From the NCBI GenBank assembly GCA_017382915.1, contig JAFNZJ010000134.1, forward strand, positions 1 to 40,051: a DNA stretch of 40,051 nt, written 5' to 3'. Source of the stretch: Clostridia bacterium. Lineage in GTDB: Bacteria; Bacillota; Clostridia; Oscillospirales; Acutalibacteraceae. The position numbers were made by a program, and so were the translations under genes. Positions within the stretch are counted from its first letter, which is position 1, and the number at the start of each line of letters is the position of its first letter. This document shows positions 3,686-40,051 of the stretch, piece after piece. Below the pieces are notes generated by a model. That model was not told the DNA's origin. It saw only the letters and a program-made list of their open reading frames with translations, and searched no databases.

Positions 3686-4730
3686 TATTATAAAGCTTAT
3701 TGACCGCCTTGAAAAAAGCCACTCACTTAACCTTTCAGAGTATGAGCAGCTTATTAACGGCTACTCCCCCACTGTGGCAGAGTATGCAGGCAAAAAGGCT
3801 GAGGCTGTAAGGCAGGCCGTTTATGGCAGGGATGTTTATATTCGCGGACTTATTGAAATAAGTAATATATGTAAAAACGACTGTTACTACTGCGGTATAA
3901 GGCACTCAAACAAAAAGTGCCAGCGTTACCGCCTTAGCGAGCAACAAATTTTAAACTGCTGCGATGAAGGCTACAGTCTTGGGTTTAGGACCTTTGTTTT
4001 GCAGGGCGGTGAAGATTTGCATTTTAGCGATGAACTACTATGCTCAATCATAACCAAAATAAAAGCCAAATACCCCGACTGTGCCGTAACACTGTCGATT
4101 GGTGAGCGCAGCTTTGAAAGCTATAAGGCCTTAAAAGAAGCCGGTGCTGACCGCTACCTATTAAGGCACGAAACAGCCGATAAAGACCATTACCAAAAAC
4201 TACACCCCGGTAATTTATCCTTTGAAAACCGCATAAAATGTCTTGAAAATTTAAAAAGTCTTGGTTTTCAGGTAGGATGCGGTTTTATGGTTGGCTCACC
4301 CTATCAAACGGCTAAAACCCTTGCCAAGGATTTAAAGTTTATTGAAACCTTTAAGCCTGATATGTGCGGCATCGGACCCTATATAACCCACAAAGAAACA
4401 CCTTTTAAAGATATGCCGTCGGGCAGTTTTGAACTGACCCTTTACCTTTTATCGATAGTGCGCCTTATTGACCCTAATTTGCTTTTACCCGCCACCACAG
4501 CGCTTGGCACAATTAACCCTAATGGTCGTGAAATGGGTATTAAAGCAGGCGCCAATGTAGTAATGCCCAACCTTTCACCAACCGACACCCGCAGCAAGTA
4601 TGAGCTTTATGAGGGCAAAATTTTCAGCGGTGATGAGGCGGCAGAGTGTAAAAAATCGCTTGAAAAAAGCATGAAAGCCATAGGCTACCAAATTGTTACC
4701 GCCCGTGGTGATAAAATTAACCAATCTTAA
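3678..4730 (+). CDS. hydE: [FeFe] hydrogenase H-cluster radical SAM maturase HydE
   Basis: 350 aa with the radical SAM CxxxCxxC motif (CKNDCYYCGIR). Biotin-synthase-like architecture, in the hydE-hydG-hydF gene order. Confidence 0.85.
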   Translation: MNDIIKLIDRLEKSHSLNLSEYEQLINGYSPTVAEYAGKKAEAVRQAVYGRDVYIRGLIEISNICKNDCYYCGIRHSNKKCQRYRLSEQQILNCCDEGYSLGFRTFVLQGGEDLHFSDELLCSIITKIKAKYPDCAVTLSIGERSFESYKALKEAGADRYLLRHETADKDHYQKLHPGNLSFENRIKCLENLKSLGFQVGCGFMVGSPYQTAKTLAKDLKFIETFKPDMCGIGPYITHKETPFKDMPSGSFELTLYLLSIVRLIDPNLLLPATTALGTINPNGREMGIKAGANVVMPNLSPTDTRSKYELYEGKIFSGDEAAECKKSLEKSMKAIGYQIVTARGDKINQS

Positions 4731-4743
4731 GGAAGTGTGTAAA

Positions 4744-6192
4744 ATGTCAAACTACAATCCAAAATCACTTAAAGCAGAGGAATTTATAAGCGATAGCGAA
4801 ATTTTAGAAACCCTGCGCTATGCTGAAGAAAATAAAAACAACACTCAGCTTATTGATGAAATTTTAGAAAAAGCAAGACCTAAAAAAACCGCCGATGGTG
4901 TAAAATGTGCAGGTCTTACCCACCGCGAAGCATCGGTACTGCTTGCCTGTGAGGACAAGGAAAAAATAAACCAAATGTTTGAATTGGCAGAGGAAATTAA
5001 GCAGGCATTTTACGGCAACCGAATTGTTATGTTTGCACCGCTTTACCTTTCAAACTACTGCGTAAACGGTTGTACCTACTGTCCATACCACTATCAAAAC
5101 AAACATATCTGCCGTAAAAAACTAACTCAAGAAGAAATTAAGGCAGAGGTTATAGCCCTGCAGGATATGGGTCATAAGCGCCTAGCCATTGAAGCGGGCG
5201 AAGACCCCGTTAACAACCCCATTGAATATATTTTAGAAAGCATTAAAACCATTTACAGCATACACCATAAAAACGGTGATATAAGAAGGGTTAATGTAAA
5301 CATTGCCGCCACCACGGTTGAAAATTACCGCAAGCTTAAAGAGGCCGGCATTGGCACATACATTCTGTTCCAAGAAACCTATCATAAAGAAAGCTATGAA
5401 AAACTGCACCCAACAGGTCCAAAGCACAATTATGCCTACCATACCGAGGCTATGGACCGCGCTATGGAGGGCGGTATTGATGATGTTGGTCTTGGTGTAC
5501 TGTTTGGACTGGAGCTTTATAAATATGAATTTGCGGGTCTTTTAATGCATGCCGAGCATTTAGAGGCGGTGCATGGTGTTGGTCCCCACACCATTAGTGT
5601 ACCAAGACTTAAAAGGGCAGATGATATTGACCCAAATCAGTTTGACAACGGTATATCGGATGAAATTTTTGAAAAAATTATTGCCTGCATTCGCATTGCT
5701 GTACCCTACACAGGTATGATAATTTCTACCAGAGAAAGTGAAGCGGTGCGCGGCAGGGCACTTCGCCTTGGTATTTCACAAATCAGCGGTGCTTCAAGAA
5801 CATCGGTTGGCGGCTACACCGAAGAGGAGCGCCCACACGATTCTGAACAGTTTGATGTTTCTGACCAACGCACCCTTGATGAGGTTGTAAGGTGGCTTAT
5901 GGAACTGGACCACATCCCTTCATTCTGTACCGCCTGCTACCGTGAGGGCAGAACAGGTGACCGCTTTATGCAGCTTTGTAAAAACGGTCAAATCCTTAAC
6001 TGCTGTCACCCCAACGCACTTATGACCCTTACCGAATATTTGGTGGACTACGCAAGTGAGGAAACCAAAAAAGTGGGCTTTGCACTTATTGAGAAAGAAC
6101 TTGGTAAAATCCCCAAAGAAAAGGTTAAAAATATAGCCGAGGATAATATTAAGCAAATCAAAGCATCAAACAGACGCGATTTTCGTTTTTAA
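4744..6192 (+). CDS. hydG: [FeFe] hydrogenase H-cluster radical SAM maturase HydG
   Basis: ATG 4744 with AAGGAAG upstream. Radical SAM motif CVNGCTYCPY and the C-terminal Cys cluster (CTACYR...C) are typical of the ThiH-like HydG. Confidence 0.85.
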   Translation: MSNYNPKSLKAEEFISDSEILETLRYAEENKNNTQLIDEILEKARPKKTADGVKCAGLTHREASVLLACEDKEKINQMFELAEEIKQAFYGNRIVMFAPLYLSNYCVNGCTYCPYHYQNKHICRKKLTQEEIKAEVIALQDMGHKRLAIEAGEDPVNNPIEYILESIKTIYSIHHKNGDIRRVNVNIAATTVENYRKLKEAGIGTYILFQETYHKESYEKLHPTGPKHNYAYHTEAMDRAMEGGIDDVGLGVLFGLELYKYEFAGLLMHAEHLEAVHGVGPHTISVPRLKRADDIDPNQFDNGISDEIFEKIIACIRIAVPYTGMIISTRESEAVRGRALRLGISQISGASRTSVGGYTEEERPHDSEQFDVSDQRTLDEVVRWLMELDHIPSFCTACYREGRTGDRFMQLCKNGQILNCCHPNALMTLTEYLVDYASEETKKVGFALIEKELGKIPKEKVKNIAEDNIKQIKASNRRDFRF

Positions 6193-6228: not shown

Positions 6229-7431
6229 ATGAGCCTTAATGAAGTTGTTTCGAGTGAGCGGGTGCATATTGGCTTTTTCGGACTGAGAAACGCAGGTAAA
6301 TCAAGCCTGGTTAATGCCGTTACAGGGCAAAACCTTTCACTGGTGTCAGATGTAAAGGGCACCACCACCGACCCCGTTTTAAAGGCAATGGAGTTACTGC
6401 CACTTGGCCCCGTAGTTATAATTGATACCCCCGGTATTGATGATGAGGGCGAGCTTGGTTTAATGAGGGTTGAAAAGGCAAAGCAGGTTTTAGCCAAAAC
6501 CAATATTGCCGTTTTGGTAGCATCTGCCTCCGCGCCCCTTTCCCCTGCTGAAAATGACCTTATAAAGCTTTTTAAAGAAAAAAGCATACCCTACATTATT
6601 GCTAAAAACAAGGCCGATTTACTTTTGACACTGCCAAAGGAAAGTGATAATGAAATTTATGTAAGCGCAACCAAAAACATAAACATAAATGAACTTAAAG
6701 AAAAAATTGCATCACTTAAAAAGGTGACGGATAGCGATAAAAAAATCCTTGCCGATATAGTAAAATCGGGCGATACCGTTATACTGACCATCCCCATTGA
6801 TGAGGCGGCACCAAAAGGCAGGCTTATATTACCCCAACAACAGGTGCTTCGTGAACTGCTTGAAATTGGGGCAACCGCCCTTGCCTGCAAACCTACCGAG
6901 CTTGAGCAAACGCTTGATAAGCTTAAATCGCCGCCCGACCTGGTTATAACCGATTCGCAGGTGTTTGGTGAGGTTGCAAAAATTCTGCCGTGTGATGTTA
7001 GCCTTACATCATTTTCAATTCTTTTTGCCCGTTATAAGGGTGATTTAAAGACAGTAGTAAGCGGCGCCGCAGCAATTAAAAATCTAAAAGACGGTGACAC
7101 CGTTTTAATATCTGAAGGGTGTACCCACCACCGCCAATGCAATGATATTGGCACCGTTAAACTGCCAAACCTTATAAAAAGCTTTACTAAAAAGCAAATA
7201 AATTTTGAATTCACTTCGGGCACAGAATTTAAAAACAACCTTACTAAATACGCCCTTATTGTCCATTGCGGCGGCTGTATGCTAAATGAAAAAGAAATGA
7301 AGCACCGCATATCCACCGCAGTAAGTGCCAATATACCCATTACCAACTACGGCATTGCATTGGCCTTAATAAACGGTATACTTAAACGCTCGGTTGAGCC
7401 GTTTGAGGAAATTAAAGATATATTTGATTAA
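6229..7431 (+). CDS. hydF: [FeFe] hydrogenase H-cluster maturation GTPase HydF
   Basis: P-loop GLRNAGKSS, DTPG and NKAD GTPase motifs. The C-terminal CTHH...HCGGC cluster-binding motif is characteristic of HydF. Confidence 0.85.
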   Translation: MSLNEVVSSERVHIGFFGLRNAGKSSLVNAVTGQNLSLVSDVKGTTTDPVLKAMELLPLGPVVIIDTPGIDDEGELGLMRVEKAKQVLAKTNIAVLVASASAPLSPAENDLIKLFKEKSIPYIIAKNKADLLLTLPKESDNEIYVSATKNININELKEKIASLKKVTDSDKKILADIVKSGDTVILTIPIDEAAPKGRLILPQQQVLRELLEIGATALACKPTELEQTLDKLKSPPDLVITDSQVFGEVAKILPCDVSLTSFSILFARYKGDLKTVVSGAAAIKNLKDGDTVLISEGCTHHRQCNDIGTVKLPNLIKSFTKKQINFEFTSGTEFKNNLTKYALIVHCGGCMLNEKEMKHRISTAVSANIPITNYGIALALINGILKRSVEPFEEIKDIFD

Positions 7432-7442
7432 ATTACATTATC

Positions 7443-7473
7443 CCCCGCCTTTTTTTCAAGGCGGGGTGTTTAT
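7443..7473 (+). terminator. hairpin terminator after hydF
   Basis: CCCCGCC (7443-7449) pairs with GGCGGGG (7460-7466) around a T-rich loop, followed by TGTTTAT. Confidence 0.55.
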
Positions 7474-7500
7474 GTAGCAAAAAAGCCAACCGAAAATGAG

Positions 7501-7628
7501 TAGGGTTGCTAAGGACAGTTTTCTTTAATAAAAGCGAAATTTTGCACACAAATTTCCTGCTTGCAACAGCATAAGACAAAACTACCCGAAGAAGAGAAAA
7601 TAAAACTCTTTTTCGGGTAGTAATTTTT
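7501..7628 (+). ncRNA. candidate structured RNA module (TAGGG start, hairpin, CCTGCTTG box, AAGACAAAAC box, terminator-like 15-bp stem plus T-run)
   Basis: Hairpin GAAATTT/AAATTTC (7536-7556). Stem CTACCCGAAGAAGAG/CTCTTTTTCGGGTAG (7582-7620), then TAATTTTT. It aligns with 39881-40000 with compensatory changes in both stems. The strand and RNA nature are inferred, not shown. Confidence 0.4.
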
Positions 7629-7632
7629 ATAT

Positions 7633-7786
7633 AGTGATATTCTGTGCTAAACGCACAGAGTGATATTTCCCTTTCGGAAAGTGATATTGAAATCTTACGA
7701 TTTTAAGTGATATTTTATTCGCCAAAAACTGCCGAAGGCAATATCACTTGAACGAAGTTCAAATATCACTGCAAAGCAATATCACT
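7633..7786. repeat. array of 9-nt repeats: 4 x AGTGATATT followed by 3 x AATATCACT (its reverse complement), separated by unique self-complementary spacers
   Basis: Direct copies start at 7633, 7659, 7680 and 7706. Inverted copies start at 7740, 7762 and 7778. The spacers are mini-hairpins (for example CTGTGC-TAAAC-GCACAG, AAATC-TTAC-GATTT, TGAAC-GAA-GTTCA and CGCC-GCAA-GGCG). Confidence 0.85.
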
Positions 7787-7807
7787 CGCCGCAAGGCGAA
7801 TAAAACT

Positions 7808-7835
7808 GCCCAAGTTTCCTTAAGAACACTTGGGC
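7808..7835 (-). terminator. hairpin terminator after lysC
   Basis: GCCCAAGT (7808-7815) pairs with ACTTGGGC (7828-7835). On the minus strand it is followed by AGTTTTATT. Confidence 0.5.
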
Positions 7836-7866
7836 AATTCGGTTGGCTTTTTATTTACTTATTTGC

Positions 7867-39657: not shown

Positions 39658-39684
39658 TTGTTATTCCTCCCTTTTTGATAGTTG

Positions 39685-39702
39685 GGTTACAAATTTGTAA
39701 CC
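39685..39702. promoter_or_regulatory. perfect 18-bp palindrome GGTTACAAATTTGTAACC in the M23 peptidase 5' leader (operator or UTR hairpin)
   Basis: Read directly from the sequence. It lies between the predicted -10 (39715-39720) and the RBS. Confidence 0.6.
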
Positions 39703-39714
39703 TGTTATGTTACT

Positions 39715-39742
39715 ATTATAACAAAAAGTTACAATTTTGCAA
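39715..39742 (-). promoter_or_regulatory. sigma-A-type promoter of the M23 peptidase gene
   Basis: On the minus strand: TTGCAA (39742-39737), 16-nt spacer ending in TGT, TATAAT (39720-39715). Confidence 0.6.
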
Positions 39743-39880
39743 CCTTTTAGGCGCCTTTGTAACTATTTTTGGGCGAAATAACCAACAAGCCGCTCGGCAT
39801 ATATGTTAATATTGAATAAAAATACAAGCATAATGTATATTTTTATAAAAAACGGGTCAACCTAATAGGTTGACACCCGA

Positions 39881-40000
39881 TAGGGAAGTATTTCTGTAAA
39901 ACAGGAGGAATTTGCCGCACAAATTCCCTGCTTGTTAAGGAAAAAGACAAAACCACCCGAAGAAGAACGAAAAATTCTTTTTCGGGTGGTATCTTTTTTT
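39881..40000 (+). ncRNA. second copy of the candidate structured module seen at 7501-7628
   Basis: TAGGG start, hairpin GAATTT/AAATTC (39908-39926), CCTGCTTG box, AAGACAAAAC box. Stem CCACCCGAAGAAGAA/TTCTTTTTCGGGTGG (39953-39989), then TATCTTTTTTT. Confidence 0.4.
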
Positions 40001-40051
40001 GTGAAGTTTCAAACCTATGGTTTGAAGTGAAGTTGTAATAAATTACAGTGA
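40000..40051. repeat. start of a 9-nt repeat array (AGTGAAGTT) with hairpin spacers, truncated by the window end
   Basis: tGTGAAGTT starts at 40000, AGTGAAGTT at 40026 and AGTGA... at 40047. Spacers are TCAAACC-TAT-GGTTTGA (17 nt) and GTAATAAATTAC (12 nt). The 26/21-nt spacing is the same as in copy 1. Confidence 0.7.

Follow-up and report, generated by a model that had tools for sequence, protein, structure and literature searches.

Among the small repeats described in bacteria, pneumococcal BOX elements are modular, with end modules set around variable internal modules, and SPRITE elements resemble terminators and occur between convergent genes (Croucher et al. 2011; PMC3049150). Extragenic palindromes are targeted by insertion sequences of the IS3, IS110, IS4, IS256, and IS5 families, and the insertion sequences that target REP include IS1397, IS621, and ISPpu9/10 (PMC1525189). 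The Gut-1 RNA motif, catalogued in 2010, was rated a likely RNA, with neither function nor host given; that description states only that it is found in human gut sequences (PMC2864571). We have found no literature on Gut-1 later than the 2010 description.

The window, by which we mean the whole 40,051-nucleotide stretch of DNA analyzed here, is ordinary Clostridia chromosome, with hydEFG, threonine-pathway genes, SipL, SpoIIIAH, a nusA-infB operon, a class A PBP, and an M23 peptidase. Within it lie two copies of one element. Copy 1, at 7479-7853, has the convergent hydF and aspartate kinase genes on its two sides; copy 2, which lies upstream of the M23 peptidase gene, begins at about 39846, and its 3′ part is cut off by the window end (Table 1). 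We think it probable, at roughly 0.6, that the copies represent two subfamilies of a noncoding mosaic of about 380 bp, similar in kind to MITE, BOX, and BIME elements, which is probably mobile and resident in the loops of transcription terminators.

Table 1. Features of the two element copies, in window positions
Feature	Position	Strand	Remark
Copy 1, host terminator A-run and left arm GCCAACCGAA (7485-7494)	7479..7494	+	Complementary to 7839-7848; terminator split by the element
Copy 1, left end: AAT, box GAGTAGGG, left subterminal inverted repeat AGGGTTGCTAAGGACAGTT (7502-7520)	7495..7520	+	
Copy 1, hairpin 1: GAAATTT (7536-7542) / AAATTTC (7550-7556)	7536..7556	+	One pair covaries across the family
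Copy 1, long stem: 16 bp with the conserved G-T, then T-rich tail TAATTTTTATAT	7581..7632	+	Terminator-like, inward-facing
Copy 1, forward array: four words AGTGATATT at 7633, 7659, 7680, and 7706, with three unrelated hairpins between	7633..7714	+	
Copy 1, center: TTTTATTCGCC (7713-7723), complementary to GGCGAATAAAA (7795-7805)	7713..7740	+	Repeat search
Copy 1, reverse array: AATATCACT at 7740, 7762, and 7778, degenerate AATAAAACT at 7799, with hairpins between	7740..7807	-	
Copy 1, 3′ hairpin: GCCCAAGT...ACTTGGGC with right subterminal inverted repeat, then AAT	7808..7838	+	
Copy 1, split host terminator: right arm TTCGGTTGGC and T-run	7839..7853	+	Complement of the left arm
Copy 2, host terminator: A-run, left arm CGGGTCAACCT, loop AAT	39846..39866	+	Intact terminator in L121, L122, L126, and L127
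Copy 2, left end: AGGTTGACACCCG, then left subterminal inverted repeat ATAGGGAAGTATTTCTGTAA	39867..39899	+	
Copy 2, hairpin 1: GGAATTTG (39907-39914) / CAAATTCC (39920-39927)	39907..39927	+	
Copy 2, long stem: CCACCCGAAGAAGAA / TTCTTTTTCGGGTGG, then TATCTTTTTTT	39953..40000	+	Terminator scan: 16 pairs, T tail
Copy 2, start of forward array: TGTGAAGTT (40000), 17-nt hairpin, AGTGAAGTT (40026), 12-nt hairpin, truncated AGTGA	40000..40051	+	

An earlier note, made from the letters of the window, had taken the second region for another copy of the first. Positions 7495-7640 align with 39866-40011 at a column identity of 75% (flanks included), and the 23-mer AAGACAAAACYACCCGAAGAAGA, exactly common to both, occurs exactly twice in the window as against 0 times in 100 shuffles; the two are indeed copies of one element, and both belong to a larger family. 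The words of each copy and their first two spacers, a 17-nt and then a 12-nt hairpin in both, are as that note described. Copy 1 is of word class 1 and copy 2 of class 2, and this genome carries two word classes. One pair of hairpin 1 is A-T in copy 1 and G-C in copy 2, a compensatory change, and the claim that differences in this hairpin preserve pairing extends to the family, the covarying pair being GC in 37, AU in 8, and GU in 6 among 53 members. In the long stem (7581-7621 in copy 1, 39953-39989 in copy 2), pair 2 changes from T-A to C-G between copies 1 and 2, and pair 15 from G-C to A-T. These compensatory changes are as first described, but each amounts to essentially one event, separating the two subfamilies, rather than to covariation seen repeatedly; the internal G-T wobble of the same stem, also reported as kept, is retained in 52 of 53 copies.

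The remainder of copy 2 can be read from a contig of the same species (L116; ENA assembly ERZ28436076, contig NODE_267), which was reached via a search for homologues of the M23 peptidase; an exact-protein look-up of the peptidase gave no match. L116 matches the final 451 nt of the window at 98.2% identity (443/451). Past the window end it has two further GTGAAGT words and then the center segment, followed by the inverted words that had been predicted to lie beyond 40051: AGCTTCACT at +59 from the window end, AACTTCACT at +75 and +94, and a degenerate fourth word. The 3′ hairpin, TTTCGGCACAGC...GCTGTGCCGAA, comes next, and after it stand the closing inverted repeat that was likewise expected there, which is the complement of the left flank, and a T-run.

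The general anatomy was drawn from class 1, for which there are 56 full copies among the matches listed. The left part consists of a locus-specific A-run and stem arm, AAT, an 8-9-nt box, a subterminal inverted repeat, and hairpin 1; the middle consists of a 16-bp long stem with a T-rich tail, two to five (usually four) modules of word plus hairpin, and the center; and the right part consists of about four reverse-word modules, a 3′ hairpin containing the right inverted repeat, AAW, the complementary arm, and a T-run. Class-1 elements end in 5′-TG...CA-3′. The whole is about 380 nt long and contains no ORF longer than 48 aa; no ORF is conserved, which rules out coding potential. The subterminal inverted repeats are imperfect (15/19 in class 1 and 24/28 in class 2) and change together between classes, with a class-1 score of 9.8 that is barely over the best of 50 shuffles (9.1). 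The center carries a segment that is complementary to one just 5′ of the 3′ hairpin and that covaries with it between classes (TTTTATTCGCC/GGCGAATAAAA, TAAGTTTGCCC/GGGCAAACTTA, and GATATAAATCCC/GGGATTTATATC; in L111, TTATATTTGCC/GGCGAATATAA). In copy 1 the center also holds a small hairpin, TGCCGAAGGCA, at 7730-7740, a symmetric −10-like TATTTTA, and promoter-like matches on both strands. Read on the minus strand, the long stem of copy 1 is followed by TTTTGTCTT and the 3′ hairpin by AGTTTTATT, the latter arrangement being terminator-like for the converging aspartate kinase gene.

The long stem has a mean dG of −23 kcal/mol, and its G-T pairs outnumber A-C mismatches 30 to 2, favoring the plus strand. 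The 5′ domain as a whole, at whose end this stem stands, is conserved mainly in sequence, with double changes at four pairs that are largely subfamily-level (RNAalifold and pair counts). Its conservation is partly ascertainment-biased, because the search pattern lies within it and all of the loci in the family, at least 115, were retrieved with that pattern. A candidate local hairpin, TAAGGA...TCTTTA, is unsupported, being 81% paired without covariation. By eye, no conserved promoter was seen within or upstream of the 5′ domain, and promoter scans flagged nothing there in copy 1; in copy 2 they gave just two weak matches, both upstream.

The spacers between words behave differently from the words themselves. 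They were aligned by anchoring solely on the flanking words; a full-length MAFFT alignment left the first two hairpins out of register and was not used. In 82 distinct class-1 forward spacers, the first five positions form Watson-Crick pairs with their mirror positions in 84-93% of cases, as against 26-45% in shuffles, and in 59 reverse spacers the corresponding figure is 83-88% (shuffles of forward and reverse together, 26-69%). All four pair types are present at most of these positions in the forward spacers, and 64-94% of the 210 distinct spacers fold at ≤−2 kcal/mol, as against 2-22% of shuffles. The hairpin loops tolerate nested hairpin insertions. Hairpin structure, kept up in every internal spacer by compensatory change, is selected; hairpin sequence is not. 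These figures uphold the earlier argument that conservation of pairing rather than of sequence reflects selection on a folded single strand, although a folded strand under selection need not be a functional RNA.

Forward words are exact in 93-98% of cases in every slot. Reverse words are exact in 58%, 76%, and 84% by slot, and the fourth is always ATAAAAC; stronger conservation of forward than of reverse words is something that symmetric protein binding does not predict. Spacing is looser. In class 1 the first gap between words is 24 or 26 nt and the second 21-25 nt, and gaps of 47-54 nt turn up now and then, so that the 26-nt then 21-nt spacing noted at the outset, though present in both copies of the window, is one variant of several. 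Over the family, word spacing runs from 16 to 26 nt in several variants, with insertions of up to 61 nt, and is not helically phased. This variability argues against phased binding on duplex DNA, ruling out iterons of that kind, and fits a folded single strand in which the hairpins place the words side by side.

The family was collected from species-representative genomes, which were scanned for a 21-nt pattern taken from the 5′ domain. Nearly all of the loci recovered are in Oscillospiraceae, Acutalibacteraceae, or "Clostridia" MAGs from human and ruminant guts, and the mosaic element has probably spread through the gut bacteria of these two families. One MAG (CASFLA01) has at least six copies and several others have three or four; several family copies lie at contig ends. 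Two copies in the same genome (L009/L065) are 99.7% identical and have unrelated flanks. Between species, the median identity of copies among the matches listed is 89%, and the flanking genes fall far short of that. So high a value could alternatively mean strong functional constraint. When the genes of the window were compared with those around the family loci, essentially no neighbors were held in common. Deletion derivatives and nested hairpin insertions occur, as in DNA repeats, and degraded copies take the form of solo long-stem terminators right after genes (L015, L024, L089, L102, and L103). The element was not found on viral contigs or plasmids in the viral and plasmid collections scanned, an absence that rules out a plasmid or phage origin. 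The sole exception in those collections is an unverified fecal "phage" contig with a related array beside a tRNA.

At least three word classes are present, GTGATAT/ATATCAC, GTGAAGT/CTTCAC, and CGATAT/ATATCG, and in every element the forward and reverse arrays are of the same class. The words are thus subfamily-specific and not specific to each copy, a point on which the earlier note had asked for a check. A fourth class, GTGAAAT, occurs in the same loci, where there are also arrays that lack this 5′ domain. GTGAAAT is the Rfam consensus for Gut-1, and the Gut-1 model (RF01706) matches the reverse array of copy 1 (7736-7808, minus strand, 56.9 bits, with a gathering score of 50) and, weakly, its forward arm (7598-7692, plus strand, 31 bits). 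The model passes its gathering score in six of nine other class-1 copies tested; it has no match in the truncated part of copy 2 within the window and none at the gathering score in the full copy of L116 or in L106, L112, L113, L109, L080, and L081 (classes 2 and 3). Both arms of a GTGAAAT-class element are matched, and the Gut-1 seed alignment, when taken with its flanks, already contains whole arrays of the same two-armed kind, with a stop codon on one side and a reversed one on the other. The Gut-1 "sRNA" of Rfam is one arm of the element core.

Of 65 copies among the matches listed, 43 are flanked by convergent genes, with 10-25 nt as the usual distance to each stop codon, and orientation relative to co-directional genes is balanced (11 versus 8). 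The flanks of each copy are mutually complementary and specific to the locus, the median perfect complement being about 10 nt; the arms and A- and T-runs of a host terminator flank most filled copies examined. Two sites can be compared with and without the element. The copy-2 site is filled in L116, and its orthologues L121, L122, L126, and L127, in which the M23 peptidase is 79-84% identical, have only the plain terminator AAAAAAGGGCAACCTATTAGGTTACCCTTT, that is, AAAAAAGGGCAACC-TATT-AGGTTACCCTTT. A site downstream of spoIVA is filled in L041, which reads AAAAATGCCATTCC, element, GGAAAGGCATTTTT; it is empty in the 88%-identical orthologues L146 and L147, where AAAAATATGCCGTTCCTTTCAGAACGGCATATTTTT is intact in the form AAAAATATGCCGTTCC-TTTCA-GAACGGCATATTTTT. 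The empty sites of L121, L122, L126, L146, and L147 are bidirectional intrinsic terminators with an A-run, a G+C-rich stem-loop, and a T-run. From these two orthologous comparisons it follows that the element lies inside the hairpin of a preexisting terminator, in or beside the loop. The alignments show it to be present or absent at two independent orthologous sites, and in both the split arms of the terminator become the element's locus-specific closing stem. For copy 1 an empty site was not found among relatives with a 91-98% identical aspartate kinase, which have other downstream genes and terminators; the aspartate kinase-hydF site is filled in all contigs of the same species, with 0-5 substitutions in most.

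The junctions themselves are less regular. No consistent target-site duplication was found; both junctions are A-rich (AAN) and match about as often as chance, and a 3-bp AAT duplication, judged from the flanks by eye, was rejected on that count. L106 has a duplicated GAAA. Eight copies, copy 2 among them, open with 8-16 nt that are identical to the local right arm and form a direct repeat with it (in copy 2, AGGTTGACACCCG is similar to the right arm AGGTTGACCC, which is located beyond the window). Targeting near an end-like sequence could lie behind this, as could a long duplication or later conversion. Subterminal inverted repeats are a feature of the IS1111 subgroup of IS110, which is not known to duplicate its target.

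We suspect that the element is moved by an enzyme acting in trans. No transposase or recombinase partner was found in the window, and none was noticed within the 8-kb loci around family copies. Its position in loops would follow from structure-directed targeting, from the survival of only those insertions that spare the stem, or from both, and the nested hairpins in the element's own loops are consistent with targeting or with a survivorship filter. Tolerance by the host may depend on the inward-facing, terminator-like hairpins with T-runs predicted near both ends, the plus-strand one being the long stem followed by TAATTTTTATAT and the minus-strand one the 3′ hairpin followed by AGTTTTATT. 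These would substitute for the terminator that has been split and would shield the core from incoming transcription. The core, we speculate, may act as a single strand, on which extruded hairpins align the identical words, and the hairpin-separated words could form a recognition platform for a mobilizing protein. A platform of this sort would account for the joint change of forward and reverse words between subfamilies and for the occurrence of several subfamilies in one genome; class-specific words in both orientations fit it.

Other readings of the array deserve consideration. It is possible, if unlikely, that the element is a mobile carrier of sRNA genes, in which a symmetric central promoter would give rise to two divergent sRNAs of about 130-140 nt. 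Each of these would display, set between hairpins, three or four single-stranded copies of one 9-mer, which is AAUAUCACU in class 1 and AACUUCACU in class 2; the leftward RNA would terminate at the long stem, after which UUUUGUCUU follows on that strand, and the repeated 9-mer would serve as a multivalent site for a protein or a complementary RNA. The non-Watson-Crick pairs of the array are G-T-biased on opposite strands in its two halves, which suggests RNA: on the plus strand, A-C exceeds G-T in forward spacers (where G-U suits the minus strand) and G-T exceeds A-C in reverse spacers, and such an opposed bias would mean that the favored strand in each half reads outward from the center. However, the mismatch counts are small (about 16 versus 5, and 9 versus 2) and come from related sequences, and the conserved G-T of the long stem becomes an A-C mismatch on the minus strand. 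Promoter-like sites are found on both strands at about 7687-7741, where the −10 sequences TATTTT and TAAAAT share their −11A/−7T pairs. Bacterial bidirectional promoters have the same −10 geometry, with starts 18 bp apart (PMC10268837), and TAnnnTA is also central in class 3 and in the Gut-1 seed sequences. Yet the promoter match is weak (9/12) and lies in AT-rich sequence, with 3 matches as against 1.8 expected, and class 2 has neither a symmetric −10 nor a convincing −35. The judgment of Weinberg et al. (PMC2864571) that Gut-1 is likely an RNA favors sRNA genes, but the strand modeled by Rfam is the opposite one, and in class 1 the rightward RNA would have no canonical terminator.

A bolder version seems to us doubtful: the Gut-1 superfamily would be a new kind of mobile element, homing by structure into terminator loops, with a divergent sRNA pair as its cargo and would form a portable, multivalent display of subfamily-specific 9-mers. 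Words displayed in this way may act as a sponge or a guide, each word coevolving with its partner and several specificities coexisting per genome.

We give a still smaller chance to selection by the host for a 3′-end element that would not be selfish and mobile, either a compound bidirectional terminator or insulator between convergent genes or a stabilizer of mRNA 3′ ends of the kind proposed for REP/BIME, spread mainly by gene conversion and recombination. There are precedents in REP and SPRITE (PMC1525189; PMC3049150). Tight packing between convergent stop codons, terminator-like hairpins with T-runs at both ends, the persistence after genes of the solo long-stem terminators listed above, and the stability within the species of the aspartate kinase-hydF copy all agree with a service to the host; but the empty orthologous sites already hold a good and much shorter terminator, gene conversion is unable to seed an element at a site that has none, and the identical words, the subfamily-specific words, and the inverted repeats are left unexplained.

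It is very improbable that forward and reverse words pair with one another as 9-bp helices with four-way junctions in one large fold of RNA or single-stranded DNA that would serve as the functional unit: the words are exact reverse complements that change together between classes, the minimum-free-energy fold uses word pairs (plus-strand z-score −13, minus-strand z-score −10), and deletions join a forward to a reverse word (L001 and L114), but forward (2-5) and reverse (about 4) modules are unequal in number, reverse words carry uncompensated, non-wobble changes (ATAACAC, ATATAAC, and ATAAAAC in slot 4) where forward words are exact, and variant forward words such as GTGATAG (L009/L065) and GTGGTAT (L020/L099) have no reverse partner, so that, as the slot frequencies also indicate, a fixed forward-reverse ladder is not what is conserved.

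A terminator-resident mosaic, probably mobile, recasts the orphan Rfam family Gut-1 as a single arm within a larger element, insertion-polymorphic and assigned to named hosts. It also provides two clean before-and-after cases of DNA inserted within an intrinsic terminator hairpin, and it accounts for a practical nuisance, the frequent breaking of MAG contigs at the element. The puzzle it leaves is that of identical short words standing between hairpins that evolve freely and always pair.

Among known systems, the Gut-1 model describes 77 nt on one strand, three hairpins with GUGAAAU linkers; in the element, which is about 380 nt long, these make up one of two arms, with the 5′ domain, inverted repeats, and a split host terminator besides. 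Its hosts likewise go beyond the Gut-1 description, taking in Oscillospiraceae and Acutalibacteraceae of both human and ruminant origin, and it is insertion-polymorphic.

A CRISPR array has direct repeats of 23-50 nt, unique nonpalindromic spacers, a leader, and cas genes. Here the repeats are only 9 nt, the spacers are hairpins of 12-17 nt, orientation reverses midway, and there is no variation between strains, so the element is not such an array; a match to CRISPR-DR21 has E=1.5.

Like REP/BIME, the element is an extragenic mosaic of palindromes in alternating orientation at the 3′ ends of genes. In REP, however, the hairpin sequence is conserved per genome and has a GTAG-type head, whereas the hairpins described here are mutually unrelated. 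Membership in REP/BIME implies a conserved palindromic unit with a 5′ tetranucleotide, and with 210 distinct spacers and only the linker word conserved, we do not place the element there.

With the pneumococcal BOX and SPRITE elements it shares small size, the absence of coding capacity, multiple copies, a predicted fold, and enrichment between convergent genes. The internal modules of BOX are one sequence copied, whereas this element combines constant words with hairpins that differ within a single copy, and, unlike BOX and SPRITE, it lies inside an existing terminator hairpin. The likeness is one of logic, and a sequence relationship is not expected.

MITEs such as Correia and RUP offer a further parallel: they are small, have no ORF, carry inverted repeats near their ends, occur in many copies, and are polymorphic for presence and absence. 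The present element is small and noncoding, at about 380 nt, occurs at least six times in a single MAG, and occupies orthologous sites in some genomes but not in others (L116 versus L121/L122/L126/L127, and L041 versus L146/L147). Unlike MITEs, it shows no clear duplication of the target site, and a matching autonomous insertion sequence was neither found in the window nor noticed in the 8-kb loci. It departs from them also in its interior, which is not junk but an array under strong structural constraint.

Some internal hairpins of the element carry an extra hairpin of 30–40 nt nested in their loop, with the same nested modules turning up in different genomes and at different positions. This nesting of loop within loop mirrors the element's own location within terminator loops. 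Deletion derivatives of the element were also found. In some of these, a forward word (one of the short repeats that separate the hairpins) is joined to a reverse word, so that the two form the palindrome AGTGATATCACT; one other derivative has lost its reverse array between direct repeats AAACTGCC. The long stem, the 16-bp terminator-like hairpin that closes the 5′ domain, occurs by itself as well.

Features associated with the element and its relatives
Feature	Locus	Coordinates	Position or context
Nested hairpin	L002, L033, L039, L105		Second forward hairpin
Nested hairpin	L078		Reverse side
Nested hairpin	L039, L056, L105		Last reverse hairpin
Deletion derivatives	L001, L114, L048, L034, L085
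Solo long stem	L015, L024, L089, L102, L103		Sole hairpin 3′ of a gene
Perfect palindrome GTTACAAATTTGTAAC and additional GTTAC/GTAAC half-sites	Window	39683–39745	Between copy 2 and M23 peptidase start codon
Genes downstream of aspartate kinase	L128		GtrA-like
Genes downstream of aspartate kinase	L139		Small ORFs
ORF with tyrosine-recombinase C-terminal motif LGHANLGTTQIYTHV	L041	3751–4752	Converges on element, opposite spoIVA
GTGAAAT-class element	L072	2539–2721	Adjoins tRNA
Two class-3 arrays in tandem	L088	512–692
Word-hairpin array related to element	L151 (MT835815.1)	4474–5774	Terminator at array end, adjoining tRNA gene

At copy 2, the palindrome and its half-sites are kept in two element-free orthologues (L121 and L122), and the region looks like an operator of the M23 peptidase gene, for which we consider it a candidate. 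Four same-species short-read contigs that carry the M23 gene (Logan contigs L117–L120) all stop approximately 140–280 nt upstream of its start, which places their ends at or slightly within the 5′ portion of copy 2; assembly breaks caused by this repeat would produce such ends.

When the copy-1 locus (window 7431–7866) is compared with two further strains (L128 and L139), aspartate kinase is 98–100% identical and the downstream genes differ, which makes the 3′ side of the aspartate kinase operon a boundary of recombination or rearrangement within this group of species. Neighboring genes differ at the element-free loci orthologous to L041, where the element lies downstream of spoIVA; the ORF with the tyrosine-recombinase motif may be linked to the element or be there by coincidence.

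The GTGAAAT-class element at L072, both arms of which clear the gathering score of Gut-1, one on each strand, and the tandem class-3 arrays at L088 indicate that several subfamilies coexist no more than a few kilobases apart. A related array is present in a contig from human feces (MT835815.1) deposited under the name “UNVERIFIED: Bacteriophage sp.”, and its arrangement of array, terminator, and tRNA is the same as that of the Gut-1 seed sequence BAAZ01025322.
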